Positions 1-9,525 of a DNA stretch of 64,000 nt are shown here, piece after piece (position 1 is the first letter of the stretch; every line of letters starts with the position of its first letter). The position numbers and the translations under genes are program-made. The stretch spans positions 107,052,397 to 107,116,396 of the forward strand of contig CM097887.1 in assembly GCA_044892525.1 (NCBI GenBank), read 5' to 3'. The DNA is from Schmidtea polychroa (Eukaryota). A model generated the notes under the pieces. The model made no database searches, had not been told where the DNA came from, and saw only the letters and a list, made by a program, of their open reading frames with translations.

Positions 1-1
1 A

Positions 2-883
2 GGATTAGTATTTGCAGTGGAAAAATTTAGTCATTACCTATGGGGCCGAAAGGTAATTTTCTATACAGATCATAGACCATTGCAATGGCTGTTAAAACAT
101 AGAGACGAAGCATCAAAGTTAGTATGATGGGCATTGAGATTACAGCCATATAATATCGAAATTGTATATCGTAAAGGTAAAGCTAATGGTAATACAGATG
201 CATTATCATGAATGGAGCAAGAGCCCGAATTAGAAGATATAAAGGAATTAGAAGGGACAATCTTCATGCTAACAAGAGAGGCTAACACTTTGAGCGATTT
301 AGTAGAAGCACAGAAAAATGATGATGAAATCAATAAGATCAGACAAGCTATAGAAGCAAAGGCCATATCAAATGAACTTCAGAAATATTGGAGAAACATA
401 AAGATAAATTCATATTGGAAGAAGGTCGAATTAAATACGTGGAATCAAGAGATAATGTAATATTAGTGCCCAAGAAATACAGAGAATCACTATTATTACA
501 ATACCACGATGGAGCACTGGGAGGATATCTCTCAGCTAGCATACACTGTCAAGATTAAAAATGAAATAATTCTGGCCAGATATAAAAGATGATGTTAAAA
601 AGTGGTGTCAATCATGTAAGATATGTATAACCAGAAGGAACACAGGCAGGAAACCACATGTCCCATTAAAACCAATGTCAGTACCGTCCTCGCCAATGGA
701 GATGACTGCTATGGACGTACTAAGGCCCTTTAAAGAATCAAAGATGGGAAATAAATTTATCATAGTATTTTGCGACTACTTAACGAAGTGGCCCGAAGCA
801 TTCCCAATTCCGAATCATAAGGCAGACACAATTGCCAGAATCTTTGTAGAACAAATTGTATTTAGATATGCTTACCGACAGAG
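2..883 (+). mobile_element. pol: Degenerate Ty3/Gypsy LTR-retrotransposon pol remnant (RNase H C-terminus, integrase zinc finger and partial catalytic core)
   Basis: The frame from base 2 reads GLVFAVEKFSHYLWGRKVIFYTDHRPLQWL...KLV*WALRLQPYNIEIVYRKGKANGNTDALS*, a typical gypsy RNase H end. After frameshifts it reads LVPKKYRESLLLQYHDGALGGY...TLSRLKMK*FWPDIKDDVKKWCQSCKIC (HHCC finger), then PMEMTAMDVLRPF...NKFIIVFCDYLTKWPEAFPIPNHKADTIARIFVEQIVFRY (rve core, first Asp at 714-716). Stops at 125, 209 and 567. Confidence 0.95.
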
Positions 884-1181
884 AAAGGCTAGATTAGTGA
901 GTATTCCTGGTTGTAAAGGAATAAAGGCTTTGGATTGGTTTAGTATCAGAAAGGTAGCGAGTGTAAACCAGCCCCGCATAAATAAATTAATTAATAATTG
1001 TAGAGTTCAAAATACGTTAAACGGGACAACGAGAGATAAAACCTCAACTTGGTTATTCTTAATCATGATAGGGGGAGTAATTTGCATGATTTTAATTTTG
1101 ATATTAACCACCCTATGGATGCTTAGATTAAATATGCGGGATATTCGTTATTGGGAAATTATTTACGAAACCGAGGTATAG
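675..1181 (+). pseudogene. Chimeric junction ORF: integrase core fragment fused in frame to the env-like membrane-anchor tail of array unit 1
   Basis: Residues up to EQIVFRY are integrase. From KARLVSIPG onward the ORF is identical to the repeated 155-aa ORF. The switch is at 883. Confidence 0.85.
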
Positions 1182-1236
1182 GGGGAAAGTCTCACCATAT
1201 ACTAGGAAGTGTAAATATATATTTTATCTATTTTAT

Positions 1237-2256
1237 ATGTTATTTATATTAGTATGTAAACTAATGTGGGCTCAAATGAGCATCGGTAAAATCAGACATC
1301 AGCGTATGTCGACTTTGGTTACCCTGCGAGGGTCTATCACGAAAGTGATAAAAGCTGTTAATTATTTTATTTTTAGAAAAATGAATTATAACAGAGAACC
1401 AAAACCACCAGTCAAAGCAAATCGACGACACCCATTGGCAACGTACAATTCCCAGACTCGAGTTGAAACTGAAGTATATAGTACATACAAAGAAGAGTAC
1501 GTATACAGGTTCATCGGAACTACGGTCGCAGCAAAAATGAATCACCTCACCTCAAACTATTGGTATTATCCCAGGAGAGTGGATATTCCAAACGATTTCA
1601 AATTCGCAGGAGGGCCTCGAAAGCAAATGATGATAACGGTTATAAATAACCAAGGTAGATTAAAATTGGCGGAACTATGTAGAGATTATGGTTCATGTCC
1701 GAAATTGGAAAACATTTGGATCCATGCGATCAATAGGCCATTCACTGTGTTTATGGCGGGATTAGAGTTACCTGTTGAATTAGAAAAACAGTGTACCCTG
1801 GAGATATACCACGCTGATGGACGAGAACGGAATATTATGATCCAGGCAGCAGCAGTTGATACCATAATCGCAGTAGAAATCTTGGATTTCAGGAAGCCAT
1901 ACTCTATAGTTAGCAAAAACGAGCCAACTTGGATTTACAATGTAAATAAAGTTGATATACAGCAGTGTAAATCATTTGTGAGGAAGAAGTTAACCAAAGC
2001 CGAGGAGGACGAGGCTACAATTTTCATATCGGCAGGTTTTGCCAAATCCCGAATCGAACTGAAGGAGACAATTATCCAAATCGCAATTATGGATATGAGG
2101 GGAAATAATTTATTGAGTGCGGTAGTGACTCCCAGAGACCCTGTAAAACACTACCAAACGCACCAATACAAGTTAAAGGAACCTGATATTAGAGGAAACC
2201 TCGACGAAGATGATTGTTATCCTCTGATAAGATCTGCGATAAGAAAATACTTGTAG
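1237..2256 (+). CDS. ORF B (unit 1 copy, repeated in all units): unknown N-terminal domain plus the first half of a REX4/ISG20-like DEDDh exonuclease-fold domain; probable true start is ATG 1381
   Basis: 339-codon open frame, intact in 20 of 22 copies. The C-terminal IAIMDMRGNNLLSAVVTPRDPVKHYQT matches the spacing of REXO4-type VSIVN.YG....D.YVKP.EPVTDYRT. ATG 1381 has AAAA context and follows a TTTTTAG acceptor-like site. Confidence 0.7.
   Translation: MLFILVCKLMWAQMSIGKIRHQRMSTLVTLRGSITKVIKAVNYFIFRKMNYNREPKPPVKANRRHPLATYNSQTRVETEVYSTYKEEYVYRFIGTTVAAKMNHLTSNYWYYPRRVDIPNDFKFAGGPRKQMMITVINNQGRLKLAELCRDYGSCPKLENIWIHAINRPFTVFMAGLELPVELEKQCTLEIYHADGRERNIMIQAAAVDTIIAVEILDFRKPYSIVSKNEPTWIYNVNKVDIQQCKSFVRKKLTKAEEDEATIFISAGFAKSRIELKETIIQIAIMDMRGNNLLSAVVTPRDPVKHYQTHQYKLKEPDIRGNLDEDDCYPLIRSAIRKYL
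1358..1383 (+). promoter_or_regulatory. Candidate splice acceptor directly before ATG 1381
   Basis: TTAATTATTTTATTTTTAG|AAAAATG: TTAAT branch-like motif, T-rich tract, AG at 1375-1376. Confidence 0.4.
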
Positions 2257-2915
2257 GTATTTTGCTTAAAGATCTGATCTCGGTAGCCAATCTACCAGTG
2301 CAGCGGATACTGAGTATTCGTGACCTTTCTGCAAATAAACTATTAGAAACCAGAGGAGTCCCAATGATTCATGGTCATTACAGATTGGGATTCCCGACGA
2401 AAACTTTCCTGCGTACGGTTCCCGGAGAACCAAGGAATTTAGTGGTCACCAATGAGGCACTGGCGATACGTGCGGTTTATTTACATCTCAGAAACGAATG
2501 GTTAGACCATATCACGAAACCCCAGGAGGAATTCATTTCCGTAACTACAGCAGCGATAGTTGAGCAGGAAATGACGCAAAAGAAGAGATTACCCGAGCAA
2601 CCATCTACATCAGGGCAACCCAAGCCTAAGAGAAAATCACCTGTGGACTTACCACCGCCTCCAGCTATATCTATTGGAGAAGAAGATGAATATGAAACAT
2701 GCGTTAGCGAAACGGAGACAGCAAAATCACCCAAACAATCATCGGGAGCTGCCTATCAGCCAAAGGATAAATCGGAAAATGCGGTCAGAAAAGAAAATCC
2801 AGAAGGAGGCAAGGTGAAAAAGATGTTAAAGAAAATATTACCCATAAAAAGACAATTTTTTCAAATTTGTCAGACTTCCCGCCAACGGAAATTCTTCAAC
2901 GATGTCTTATTTTAA
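2214..2915 (+). CDS. ORF C (unit 1 copy, repeated in all units): -1-frame continuation of ORF B, with the second half of the exonuclease-like fold and a Pro/Lys/acidic low-complexity tail
   Basis: KILVG...IRDLS...EALAIRAVY parallels RILVGH...IRDT...DA.A.MRLY of REX4-family nucleases. It overlaps the end of ORF B. One extra base near the A-run at 2244-2247 would give a single 511-aa ORF from 1381 to 2915. Confidence 0.65.
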   Translation: MLSSDKICDKKILVGILLKDLISVANLPVQRILSIRDLSANKLLETRGVPMIHGHYRLGFPTKTFLRTVPGEPRNLVVTNEALAIRAVYLHLRNEWLDHITKPQEEFISVTTAAIVEQEMTQKKRLPEQPSTSGQPKPKRKSPVDLPPPPAISIGEEDEYETCVSETETAKSPKQSSGAAYQPKDKSENAVRKENPEGGKVKKMLKKILPIKRQFFQICQTSRQRKFFNDVLF

Positions 2916-3001
2916 AGCTCATTGCAATACCTTTCGAATGTGGTATAGAAATCCATATTATCAATATTATTGGTAAAGATATTATTTTTTCAAAATATTA
3001 T

Positions 3002-3070
3002 TTTTTCAAGGTCATTTATATTTTCAAGGTCATTTATATTTTCAAGGTCATTCATATTTTCAAGGTCATA
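3002..3070 (+). repeat. 18-bp minisatellite (TTTTCAAGGTCATTTATA), 4 copies per standard unit, 3 or 5 in variant units
   Basis: TCAAGGTCA at 3006, 3024, 3042 and 3060, exactly 18 bp apart. Unit 13 has five copies; units 17, 20 and 22 have three. Confidence 0.95.
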
Positions 3071-3231
3071 TTTTAAAATTTAAATTTTTAGAGTTCCCAC
3101 CAATGGAATTTATTGGCCGATGGCTAATTTTGAAGCCCACTGCAATACCTTTCGAATGACGTATAGATATTCATATTATCATTATTATTAATAAAGATAT
3201 TATTTTTTCAAAATATTATTTTTCAAGGTCG
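3006..3231 (+). promoter_or_regulatory. Homotypic cluster of NR5A (FTZ-F1/SF-1) / ERR-type extended half-sites
   Basis: Four TCAAGGTCA plus TCAAGGTCG at 3223-3231, all fitting the established YCAAGGYCR consensus. Function is untested. Confidence 0.4.
3190..3195 (+). terminator. Candidate polyadenylation signal AATAAA for the ORF B/C transcript
   Basis: AATAAA lies ~275 nt after the ORF C stop and is followed by T-rich sequence. The AT-rich context makes chance occurrence likely. Confidence 0.3.
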
Positions 3232-3277
3232 TTTATTTTTTCAAGGTTCAAAATCTGTTCAAAGCTACTGTTTTAGT

Positions 3278-3533
3278 CAATACGAACCAGATGAAATAAT
3301 CGGTTCCATCGCCAAAAGTGATGCTCATCCTATTTGAATATATGCCTGAAAGATTGAAAGATTCAAGTTGAAAGACCTGAAATTAGAAGACAATCACAAG
3401 AAAATATTATCCGGACAATTGATGTCCGGACTGCAATACTTGCATAATTTGAATATCGCCCACTGCAATATCAATCCAAAAGACATTTTCGATGATATGG
3501 CAGAATTAAGATTAAAGATTTCAAACTTTGGAG
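3278..3533 (+). pseudogene. Broken eukaryotic protein-kinase fragment (subdomains ~I and V-VII, CMGC-like), repeated in all units
   Basis: Three frames give QYEPDEIIGS (3278), VMLILFEYMPERL (3318) and QLMSGLQYLHNLNIAHCNINPKDIF...LKISNFG. These correspond to hinge FEYM, catalytic loop HRDIKP.N and DFG. It is frameshifted and lacks subdomains II-IV and VIII-XI. Confidence 0.8.
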
Positions 3534-4062
3534 GACGAATAATAAAATTGCGCTTATCGTCATATTAGAAAATGACCAGCGAGTCGAGAGATTAGTGCTC
3601 AACCATGCTTATCTAAGTAGAAGATGGACAATCAAACCAGATACCGTGACAAAGGCGAACATTTCGTATTTGGAATTTACGGAGAGAACCGGTTGGTATA
3701 CAATATATCAAGAAATAGTAAATCTAATACCTCCCACAAAAGGAGAACTAACTGGCAAAGAAGGAAAGGCTAGATTAGTGAGTATTCCTGGTTGTAAAGG
3801 AATAAAGGCTTTGGATTGGTTTAGTATCAGAAAGGTAGCGAGTGTAAACCAGCCCCGCATAAATAAATTAATTAATAATTGTAGAGTTCAAAATACGTTA
3901 AACGGGACAACGAGAGATAAAACCTCAACTTGGTTATTCTTAATCATGATAGGGGGAGTAATTTGCATGATTTTAATTTTGATATTAACCACCCTATGGA
4001 TGCTTAGATTAAATATGCGGGATATTCGTTATTGGGAAATTATTTACGAAACCGAGGTATAG
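3496..4062 (+). pseudogene. 5'-truncated type I membrane protein fragment, env-like (first complete copy, repeated in all units)
   Basis: The frame is open from 3496 to TAG 4062; the track's GTG start is not a eukaryotic start. It has NIS and NGT sequons, the hydrophobic helix WLFLIMIGGVICMILILILTTLWML and a short tail RLNMRDIRYWEIIYETEV. It has no ATG or signal peptide of its own. The env identity is inferred from topology and position after a gypsy pol. Confidence 0.55.
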
Positions 4063-6644: not shown

Positions 6645-9525
6645 GAAAGGCTAGATTAGTGAGTATTCCTGGTTGTAAAGGAATAAAGGCTTTGGATTGG
6701 TTTAGTATCAGAAAGGTAGCGAGTGTAAACCAGCCCCGCATAAATAAATTAATTAATAATTGTAGAGTTCAAAATACGTTAAACGGGACAACGAGAGATA
6801 AAACCTCAACTTGGTTATTCTTAATCATGATAGGGGGAGTAATTTGCATGATTTTAATTTTGATATTAACCACCCTATGGATGCTTAGATTAAATATGCG
6901 GGATATTCGTTATTGGGAAATTATTTACGAAACCGAGGTATAGGGGGAAAGTCTCACCATATACTAGGAAGTGTAAATATATATTTTATCTATTTTATAT
7001 GTTATTTATATTAGTATGTAAACTAATGTGGGCTCAAATGAGCATCGGTAAAATCAGACATCAGCGTATGTCGACTTTGGTTACCCTGCGAGGGTCTATC
7101 ACGAAAGTGATAAAAGCTGTTAATTATTTTATTTTTAGAAAAATGAATTATAACAGAGAACCAAAACCACCAGTCAAAGCAAATCGACGACACCCATTGG
7201 CAACGTACAATTCCCAGACTCGAGTTGAAACTGAAGTATATAGTACATACAAAGAAGAGTACGTATACAGGTTCATCGGAACTACGGTCGCTGCAAAAAT
7301 GAATCACCTCACCTCAAACTATTGGTATTATCCCAGGAGAGTGGATATTCCAAACGATTTCAAATTCGCAGGAGGGCCTCGAAAGCAAATGATGATAACG
7401 GTTATAAATAACCAAGGTAGATTAAAATTGGCGGAACTATGTAGAGATTATGGTTCATGTCCGAAATTGGAAAACATTTGGATCCATGCGATCAATAGGC
7501 CATTCACTGTGTTTATGGCGGGATTAGAGTTACCTGTTGAATTAGAAAAACAGTGTACCCTGGAGATATACCACGCTGATGGACGAGAACGGAATATTAT
7601 GATCCAGGCAGCAGCAGTTGATACCATAATCGCAGTAGAAATCTTGGATTTCAGGAAGCCATACTCTATAGTTAGCAAAAACGAGCCAACTTGGATTTAC
7701 AATGTAAATAAAGTTGATATACAGCAGTGTAAATCATTTGTGAGGAAGAAGTTAACCAAAGCCGAGGAGGACGAGGCTACAATTTTCATATCGGCAGGTT
7801 TTGCCAAATCCCGAATCGAACTGAAGGAGACAATTATCCAAATCGCAATTATGGATATGAGGGGAAATAATTTATTGAGTGCGGTAGTGACTCCCAGAGA
7901 CCCTGTAAAACACTACCAAACGCACCAATACAAGTTAAAGGAACCTGATATTAGAGGAAACCTCGACGAAGATGATTGTTATCCTCTGATAAGATCTGCG
8001 ATAAGAAAATACTTGTAGGTATTTTGCTTAAAGATCTGATCTCGGTAGCCAATCTACCAGTGCAGCGGATACTGAGTATTCGTGACCTTTCTGCAAATAA
8101 ACTATTGGAAACCAGAGGAGTCCCAATGATTCATGGTCATTACAGATTGGGATTCCCGACGAAAACTTTCCTGCGTACGGTTCCCGGAGAACCAAGGAAT
8201 TTAGTGGTCACCAATGAGGCACTGGCGATACGTGCGGTTTATTTACATCTCAGAAACGAATGGTTAGACCATATCACGAAACCCCAGGAGGAATTCATTT
8301 CCGTAACTACAGCAGCGATAGTTGAGCAGGAAATGACGCAAAAGAAGAGATTACCCGAGCAACCATCTACATCAGGGCAACCCAAGCCTAAGAGAAAATC
8401 ACCTGTGGACTTACCACCGCCTCCAGCTATATCTATTGGAGAAGAAGATGAATATGAAACATGCGTTAGCGAAACGGAGACAGCAAAATCACCCAAACAA
8501 TCATCGGGAGCTGCCTATCAGCCAAAGGATAAATCGGAAAATGCGGTCAGAAAAGAAAATCCAGAAGGAGGCAAGGTGAAAAAGATGTTAAAGAAAATAT
8601 TACCCATAAAAAGACAATTTTTTCAAATTTGTCAGACTTCCCGCCAACGGAAATTCTTCAACGATGTCTTATTTTAAAGCTCATTGCAATACCTTTCGAA
8701 TGTGGTATAGAAATCCATATTATCAATATTATTGGTAAAGATATTATTTTTTCAAAATATTATTTTTTCAAGGTCATTTATATTTTCAAGGTCATTTATA
8801 TTTTCAAGGTCATTCATATTTTCAAGGTCATATTTTAAAATTTAAATTTTTAGAGTTCCCACCAATGGAATTTATTGGCCGATGGCTAATTTTGAAGCCC
8901 ACTGCAATACCTTTCGAATGACGTATAGATATTCATATTATCATTATTATTAATAAAGATATTATTTTTTCAAAATATTATTTTTCAAGGTCGTTTATTT
9001 TTTCAAGGTTCAAAATCTGTTCAAAGCTACTGTTTTAGTCAATACGAACCAGATGAAATAATCGGTTCCATCGCCAAAAGTGATGCTCATCCTATTTGAA
9101 TATATGCCTGAAAGATTGAAAGATTCAAGTTGAAAGACCTGAAATTAGAAGACAATCACAAGAAAATATTATCCGGACAATTGATGTCCGGACTGCAATA
9201 CTTGCATAATTTGAATATCGCCCACTGCAATATCAATCCAAAAGACATTTTCGATGATATGGCAGAATTAAGATTAAAGATTTCAAACTTTGGAGGACGA
9301 ATAATAAAATTGCGCTTATCGTCATATTAGAAAATGACCAGCGAGTCGAGAGATTAGTGCTCAACCATGCTTATCTAAGTAGAAGATGGACAATCAAACC
9401 AGATACCGTGACAAAGGCGAACATTTCGTATTTGGAATTTACGGAGAGAACCGGTTGGTATACAATATATCAAGAAATAGTAAATCTAATACCTCCCACA
9501 AAAGGAGAACTAACTGGCAAAGAAG
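6645..9525 (+). repeat. Array unit 3 (2881 bp)
   Basis: Private synonymous A>T at 7292. Confidence 0.95.

Follow-up and report, generated by a model that had tools for sequence, protein, structure and literature searches.

The stretch of DNA analysed here, called the window in what follows, comprises 64,000 nt of the genome of Schmidtea polychroa (contig CM097887.1, positions 107,052,397-107,116,396, forward strand; assembly of 781 Mb) and is occupied, from 883 to 64000, by 22 head-to-tail units of about 2881 bp each, more than 98% alike and with 0-15 small differences per unit. Each unit contains a piece of a long terminal repeat (LTR) element of the Ty3/gypsy type and, within it, two open reading frames, ORF B and ORF C, which on the evidence of their sequences are the two halves of the accessory ORF2 of the parent element. 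The main subject is the domain divided between these halves, in which an initial annotation of the same DNA had recognized, at a single place, a REX4/ISG20-type DEDDh exonuclease fold with its active site erased; the feature recurs 22 times in the window. The parts of ORF2 discernible in the first unit are the following:

1381..2256, forward strand: ORF B, the 5' part of ORF2, 291 amino acids (aa) from the ATG at 1381 (open frame 1132..2256); identity of 96% with an unbroken copy across 284 aa, homologous to about 2232
2214..2915, forward strand: ORF C, the 3' half of the pseudo-exonuclease and a low-complexity linker; 93% identical over 208 aa to an unbroken copy, homology stopping at about 2852
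1969..2513, forward strand: REX4/ISG20-type DEDDh pseudo-exonuclease domain, split by a frameshift; from profile, Atlas and structure-model matches
2029-2031, 2035-2037 and 2274-2276, forward strand: catalytic places of the window family, ExoI Asp read as Ser, ExoI Glu as Gly and ExoII Asp as Leu; ungapped sequence alignment
2439-2441 and 2454-2456, forward strand: remaining catalytic places, ExoIII His read as Leu and ExoIII Asp as Glu; ungapped sequence alignment
1486..1900, forward strand: double-stranded beta-helix (cupin / 2-oxoglutarate (2OG)-oxygenase-like) domain with conserved IPN, His and Glu; from a model (pLDDT 91), structure searches and conservation
2225..2235, forward strand: frameshifting small deletion, in 22 of 22 window units and also in contigs of public runs
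1362..1383, forward strand: predicted splice-acceptor-like T-run and AG, lying few nucleotides ahead of the ATG (1381) at which ORF2 probably starts; sequence pattern

The peptides from which the exonuclease fold had been recognized lie where they had been placed (TIFISAGF at 2017-2040 and VVTPRDPVKHYQT at 2122-2160 in ORF B, KILVGILLKDL at 2244-2276 and LVVTNEALAIRAVY at 2439-2480 in ORF C), and the fold itself is recovered beyond chance by tests which were all run on unbroken natural copies, 93-96% identical to the window halves. In the ESM Atlas the top match of the domain is RNase_T (0.95), a set to which 29 of the 30 matches belong. A profile built from the four motif-less families of ORF2 places ISG20L2 first among 177,635 PDB sequences (E 4.5e-4), with ISG20L2, ISG20 and SDN1 on top, ahead of other DEDD groups, and reaches an HH probability of 99.4 over 191 columns against the element families with intact motifs; one of the latter, family D, matches ISG20L2 and ISG20 at E 2e-7 and 6e-7. 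An AlphaFold2 model, computed from a 68-row alignment (pLDDT 95.1, pTM 0.91), matches ISG20 with Z 17.8 and a root-mean-square deviation of 3.1, 161 of 168 residues being aligned, the next best match having Z 14.7; Foldseek gives ISG20L2 at E 1.5e-7. Thirty of the 68 alignment members match RNase_T in Pfam at E<=0.1; no such Pfam match was obtained with the window halves or with unbroken proteins of families A, B and C, a single-sequence PDB search with the dead domain returned only chance matches to leucine-rich repeats (E>0.7), and the phage collection gave no match. The label 'REX4-type' is given from motifs, and rows with REX4-type motifs rank after element-type rows. The outcome that had been named as a refutation, namely no profile or structural match to DnaQ/DEDD folds, is thus not what was found, both model and profile giving a match.

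The five catalytic places (two of ExoI, one of ExoII, two of ExoIII) read S,G,L,L,E in families A and A2, A,H,L,L,D in B, A,H,F,L,D in C, and D,E,E,H,D in D, whose motifs are D-A-E, H-D-L-Q-N-E and H-S-A-x-E-D. In the window lineage none of the catalytic motifs is kept, ExoI D-x-E reading S-A-G, the ExoII Asp reading Leu, and ExoIII H-x4-D reading L-x4-E; the alignment therefore bears out the loss of the ExoI acids and of the ExoIII His and the change of the ExoIII Asp to Glu, as originally proposed. The Asp of KDL, which had been thought to be the surviving ExoII Asp, is not that residue: it aligns one place early, with the Asn that precedes the catalytic ExoII Asp of ISG20L2, and a Leu stands at ExoII. 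We consider it almost certain that a REX4/ISG20-type DEDDh fold and the loss of its catalytic residues occur together in this protein. That the domain might still cut nucleic acid through a rearranged active site is extremely improbable; the ExoIII Asp or Glu is kept in families A-C and an Asp lies one place before ExoII in all four families, but neither ExoI acid is left, nor the ExoII Asp, nor the His that would act as general base, and the dead rows of the alignment show no conservation at these places. Two-metal DEDDh catalysis depends on the residues that are missing.

The age and the maintenance of the dead state were assessed on a wider set of homologues. A hidden Markov model (HMM) search of 1.84 billion representatives gave 1523 proteins at E<=0.001; a word-indexed search (residues 100-440, lengths 405-1292) had passed none of 2893 candidates, a blank to be ascribed to limited sensitivity, since the HMM search then gave these 1523. 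The best 150 of the 1523, together with 7 own sequences, formed the alignment input, of which the 130 covering the domain were aligned and 27 dropped. Sixty-eight rows (7 own, 61 public) were labelled element-type by rank and motif, with an active site intact in 40, dead in 22 and gapped in 6; among the 62 cellular-like rows, the site is intact in 55, dead in 3, gapped in 3 and partial in 1. Some cellular-like proteins (P0058, P0069, P0071, P0075 and P0147) carry two to four REX4-type domains, some of them with degenerate active sites. In the genome of S. polychroa itself a PF00929 search gave 20 matches, of which a single one is strong and lies in a DEDDh gene of host type (E 2e-23; by eye it resembles ERI1), the other 19 being weak and located in other repeat families; no clear REX4 gene was seen, though exon splitting may hide one. 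The 19 weak matches align to ORF2 by tblastn at E 4e-24 to 1e-8; the flanks of three of them (family D) have the layout LTR-polyprotein-ORF2-LTR with a reverse transcriptase (RT) 54-55% identical, and ORF2 keeps the same gene position across families whose RTs are 54-74% identical.

Between families A and A2, both dead, the DEDDh domain shows a nonsynonymous divergence (dN) of 0.061 against a synonymous divergence (dS) of ~1.8, dN/dS being 0.033, and elsewhere in ORF2 the ratio is 0.066 (N-terminal) and 0.064 (C-terminal), so that the dead domain is the best-conserved part of the protein. The conservation does not concern the catalytic places, which vary freely; it concerns other positions that stay fixed throughout the dead rows (F and P each 22/22, R and G each 21/22, a second R 20/22), these rows retaining the F, TP-R, G and the IRD motif. 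Trees, which are quick and unrooted and from which no donor direction is claimed, require one change to the dead state when the motif columns are included (SH-aLRT 80), two when they are left out, and three after also dropping two long branches; without the motif columns the window family clusters with eight other dead rows (SH-aLRT 93). The dead domain is, as judged from these alignments, an old pseudo-nuclease maintained by purifying selection in the gene family. The earlier proposal of a pseudo-nuclease holds at this level; it does not hold for the window copy, all 22 units being frameshifted inside the domain and drifting neutrally (see below).

The extra domain which had been noted ahead of the exonuclease fold is present, and the N-terminal 140 residues are modelled as a double-stranded beta-helix, that is, a barrel of the cupin/2OG-oxygenase type. 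Its best structural matches are ALKBH6 (Z 9.7) and the cupin HP0902 (Z 9.1), AlkB-type proteins and small cupins being tied, to within 1 Z unit, at Z 8-9.7, and Foldseek returns cupins at E~1e-4; an Atlas search with this domain gave no usable match. In its alignment the HxD motif is not conserved, and one His (49/56), one Glu (50/60) and the IPN motif are. At the other end of the protein the last ~110 aa of ORF2 (L022:3100-3659) form a further conserved domain (dN/dS 0.064), which is found in families A, B and C and not in D.

In unbroken copies, ORF2 encodes 690 aa from the same ATG as the window copy; the un-frameshifted homologues whose search had been recommended do exist, as dispersed copies in the genome. 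The frames of ORF B and ORF C belong to one gene, as the proposed join implied, with the break lying near 2230, about 15 nt upstream of that join; the 511-aa protein repaired in this way is not a natural product, unbroken copies having 690 aa and array copies being cut at ~2852, with the loss of ~200 of the 690 residues. The product of ORF B in the array would stop ~70 residues into the 165-residue DEDDh domain. The deletion near 2230 is common to all 22 window units and to each of the 13 further array units that were measured; six dispersed copies, and one isolated unit past the end of the array, lack it. Programmed frameshifting as the cause of the split was rejected, the dispersed copies and the isolated unit being continuous at this place; assembly error was likewise rejected, the deletion being found in all 22 units and in public contigs (from runs that may share the sample with the assembly). 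In particular, the frameshift is taken to be real DNA because a public contig of 1203 nt, from a run which may share its sample with the assembly, crosses the deletion without gaps. As for expression, families A, B and C have a T-run with YAG 2-4 nt ahead of the corresponding ATG (A2 has only CAG, and family D lacks it), which suggests that ORF2 may be expressed from a spliced subgenomic mRNA; no splice joint at the predicted acceptor was seen among the joints listed for public contigs guessed to be RNA, a result that has no bearing on expression.

The remaining features of the first unit and of the DNA ahead of it are listed below:

1..870, forward strand: degenerate integrase fragment of the parent Ty3/gypsy element, preceding the first unit; match of 94.9% with pol from a dispersed copy, Integrase_H2C2 at E 1.1e-4 and rve at E 0.14
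883..3763, forward strand: first tandem unit, 2881 bp; repeat comparison
883..1181, forward strand: end of the membrane-protein tail of the polyprotein, continuing from 3528-3763 of the preceding unit
2860..3250, no strand assigned: AT-rich satellite-like short repeats in place of the ORF2 end and LTR; matched repeatedly in the flanks, with depth very high in contigs of public runs
3290..3568, forward strand: captured protein-kinase gene fragment; Pkinase E 6.6e-6, 26.1 bits, below the cut-off of 31.7
3528..3763, forward strand: polyprotein tail piece from the element, contiguous with 883 onward in the parent

Each unit is thus composed of a continuous 2.2-kb piece of the LTR element (3528-3763 plus 883-2852), a 3' fragment without LTR, followed by the satellite-like stretch and the kinase fragment, and on this composition the macrosatellite is an LTR-element fragment amplified in tandem together with both. 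A protein search of the genome found at least 57 units in the block holding the window and at least 12 in a second block 0.56 Mb upstream, counts which are lower bounds (150 of 849 candidates scored); the two blocks, at C3:107.05-107.22 Mb and 106.49-106.52 Mb of the same contig, hold at least 69 units together. The upstream flank is common to both over more than 16 kb at 99.97% identity, so that some of the copies may stem from a recent duplication or from duplication in the assembly. The smaller block stops abruptly within ORF B (L082 near 4560), and a partial unit interrupts the array at C3:107.152 Mb (L085 near 8000-8240). About 15 kb past the array end lies the isolated unit (L035:5087-7724, G000:C3:107.23 Mb). 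It shares 99% identity and the 3' truncation with the array unit, has no frameshift, and is likely close to an earlier state of that unit. Just upstream of the window, an inverted repeat of 2.09 kb and 99.9% identity (L032:2701-9576; also L040) holds glycoprotein/protease and kinase fragments of the parent element, the protein-kinase fragment being present in it twice; ~15 kb upstream, an ORF for a hAT transposase with a BED finger and a dimerisation domain was observed (L033:5080-6924).

The array copies decay neutrally. With the isolated unbroken unit as comparison and two dispersed copies as outgroups, replacement and silent changes number 8 and 2 on the array branch, compared with 20 and 59 for the isolated unit and a dispersed copy (Fisher p 0.0012); the array copies have also lost a glycine retained in 21 of the 22 dead rows, and 2 of the 22 units bear a further frameshift in ORF B. 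A host function for the array, as a locus yielding a truncated ORF B protein or silencing small RNAs directed against the element family, is quite improbable. The presence of 69 or more units, divided between two blocks of a single contig, the complete cupin-like domain of ORF B, and the finding of the unit junctions and of the deletion in public contigs would agree with such a role; the neutral pattern on the array branch, including the lost glycine, the further frameshifts, the lack of an LTR in the unit, and the shared flank, owing to which the copy number may partly reflect a recent or assembly duplicate, argue against it. The array is, in our opinion, very probably non-functional.

The link to gypsy elements which had been suggested for the repeat is confirmed by the dispersed genomic copies, 93-95% identical at the DNA level to the element piece of the array, which define as parent an envelope-bearing Ty3/gypsy element of ~15 kb with the order LTR, gag-env-pol polyprotein, ORF2, LTR. 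They encode a single polyprotein of ~3,500 aa, followed by the second ORF; at least 11 dispersed matches have an open frame of 775 codons across ORF2 and at least 4 more one of 747-773 codons, and the LTR pairs of three copies are 99.85-100% identical (522-760 bp compared). By Pfam, a fusion glycoprotein (PF24664) is encoded between gag and protease and in the same frame. LTRs, gag, the order protease-RT-RNase H-integrase, and a class III fusion glycoprotein between gag and pol are all present; by these features the parent element is a GAG-ENV-POL errantivirus of the planarian type. Of the extra modules of Burro-like elements, ubiquitin is matched weakly (E 0.049) and Bcl-2 has no Pfam match. 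Beyond the integrase the polyprotein continues into a region of ~330 aa bounded by hydrophobic segments, a second membrane-protein-like module (L022:1-1386; window 883-1181 and 3528-3763), to which the family D polyprotein tail is related, without the last hydrophobic segment. At G000:C2:100.87-100.90 Mb (L023-L025) at least three complete elements stand in tandem with a spacing of 14,218 bp, 99.95% alike and sharing LTRs.

The reading that we favour, and hold to be rather probable, is that unbroken ORF2 consists of the barrel and a catalytically dead DEDDh domain under purifying selection and that it is likely a non-cutting, RNA-binding accessory protein, the array copies being probably without function. 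The ancestral ORF2 would have been an active 3'-5' DEDDh/DEEDh exoribonuclease with a beta-barrel cap; in one or a few lineages, catalysis would have disappeared long ago and the surface facing the substrate would have been kept; the protein, translated from a subgenomic RNA that arises by splicing, might grip the 3' ends of element RNA or reverse-transcription intermediates and could shield or chaperone element RNA against host nucleases or small-RNA silencing. Precedents for pseudo-exonucleases that bind RNA are PML PXL (PMC13659232) and Maelstrom and EXD1 (PMC5408684), as described in passages of these papers. Several points weigh against this reading: selection demonstrates some function and not which one, a protein scaffold fitting equally; the net charge of the DEDDh domain per 100 residues is unremarkable (+2.4 in dead rows, +0.8 in intact element rows, +2.9 in cellular-like rows); one acid, the ExoIII Glu, persists in the window lineage; catalytic places were assigned by sequence alignment; dS between A and A2 is near saturation (proportion of synonymous differences, pS, 0.68), so that dN/dS is approximate; the array-branch test rests on 10 changes; and the public homologues come without names or context (ten that were looked up had no names and lay mostly on contigs of 1.8-2.7 kb), their retroelement origin being deduced.

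A dead domain kept as a protein-binding or structural module instead of a nucleic-acid binder, whether as a scaffold for the barrel, a component of the particle or a partner for some host factor, is unlikely. In its favour, the model joins the two domains into a single confident unit (pTM 0.91), the conserved places include many glycines, prolines and residues of the hydrophobic core, the charge is not distinctive, and the dead rows differ freely at what had been the active site. What speaks against such a module is that basic and aromatic residues of surface type (TP-R, K-x-Y, G-I-R-D) are common to dead, intact and cellular-like rows, and that known pseudo-DEDD domains are often RNA-binding, as passages of PMC13659232 and PMC5408684 indicate. 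An RNA-binding accessory protein also seems preferable to a decoy or antagonist, suggested at the outset, which would mimic a host REX4/ISG20-like or small-RNA-trimming nuclease and so block its partners or substrates; this we judge decidedly improbable. The closest solved folds are ISG20, Pan2 and SDN1, but at only 14-18% identity, and ISG20 is the best match because of which REX4-family structures are solved; the active site is retained in 40 of the 68 element-type homologues, which points to an RNA job on the side of the element. The arenavirus nuclease that served as a precedent is active, and an interferon system is not expected in a flatworm. In favour of a decoy, the element group carries other host-modulating modules (PMC6431247, in part) and arenavirus ExoN suppresses innate signalling (passages of PMC7968707).

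Retrovirus accessory genes are means of fighting the host, and almost none has been characterised for the envelope-bearing retrotransposons of invertebrates. In the present case a single genome holds, in young element families of high copy number, an accessory enzyme in matched active and dead versions, and the animal group is one in which work on RNA interference and on the PIWI pathway is routine. It thereby becomes directly testable what role a retroelement has for an exonuclease and for a dead form derived from it, which was left open for the DEDDy ORFs of rotifers (PMC5408684). The copies in the window itself contribute little more than one instance of a macrosatellite formed from a piece of an element. 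It is conceivable, if doubtful, that envelope-bearing retroelements of flatworm type carry a widespread and hitherto undescribed two-domain accessory protein, cupin-like barrel plus REX4-type DEDDh, in active and anciently dead forms; the dead form would be an RNA-end shield or a silencing suppressor, the first LTR-element pseudo-nuclease directed against host RNA decay or the trimming of PIWI-interacting RNAs, with the barrel reading a base or RNA modification.

Among the systems already described, those closest to the parent element are Smed_errantivirus_1-6, planarian HSV/gB-type GAG-ENV-POL errantiviruses which share its layout, PF24664 between gag and protease and a size of ~15 kb; the parent-element glycoprotein is closest, judged by eye, to that of Smed_errantivirus_4 (passages of PMC13524379). 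The words 'exonuclease' and 'DEDD' are absent from the main text of that paper, and 'exonuclease' from 7 supplements. Burro/GYPSM1 shares the GAG-ENV-POL layout and differs in that no exonuclease ORF is listed for it in the passages seen of PMC6431247. The cargo had been called unusual for such a repeat; that an exonuclease is in itself unusual cargo is not supported, DEDDy ORF3s with intact residues being present in the bdelloid rotifer Juno/Vesta LTR retrotransposons and in Terminons (PMC5408684, in part), DEDDy ORFs being cited as a known accessory domain of LTR elements (PMC6338049, in part), and intact sister families existing in the same genome. DEDD-exonuclease cargo is already known for LTR elements; in the literature searched, no REX4-type DEDDh ORF, cupin-DEDDh fusion or dead form was found described for them; subscription papers, Repbase and the text and supplements of Grohme 2018, outside that scope, may bear on the point. 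With human ISG20 (1WLJ) and ISG20L2 (7YW5; PF00929) the ORF2 domain shares the fold, the motif spacing, the ILVG strand and the IRD motif; it differs in lacking the catalytic residues, in its identity of 14-17%, in being fused to a cupin-like barrel and a long tail, and in being borne by a retroelement. Cellular pseudo-exonucleases, namely PML PXL (PMC13659232), Maelstrom, EXD1 and Exuperantia (5L80, Z 10.7), likewise have a DEDD fold without catalytic residues, retained for another job; these are host genes of other DEDD subfamilies, and RNA binding, shown for them, is presumed for ORF2. The ORF3 of Juno/Vesta resembles ORF2 as an accessory ORF of 3'-5' exonuclease fold placed after pol, with a DEDD-to-DEED change as in family D; in the passages of PMC5408684 it is an RNase D-like DEDDy protein with intact residues standing in place of env, whereas the ORF2 described here is a REX4-like DEDDh protein that stands beside a real env, is fused to a barrel and includes a long-lived dead lineage.

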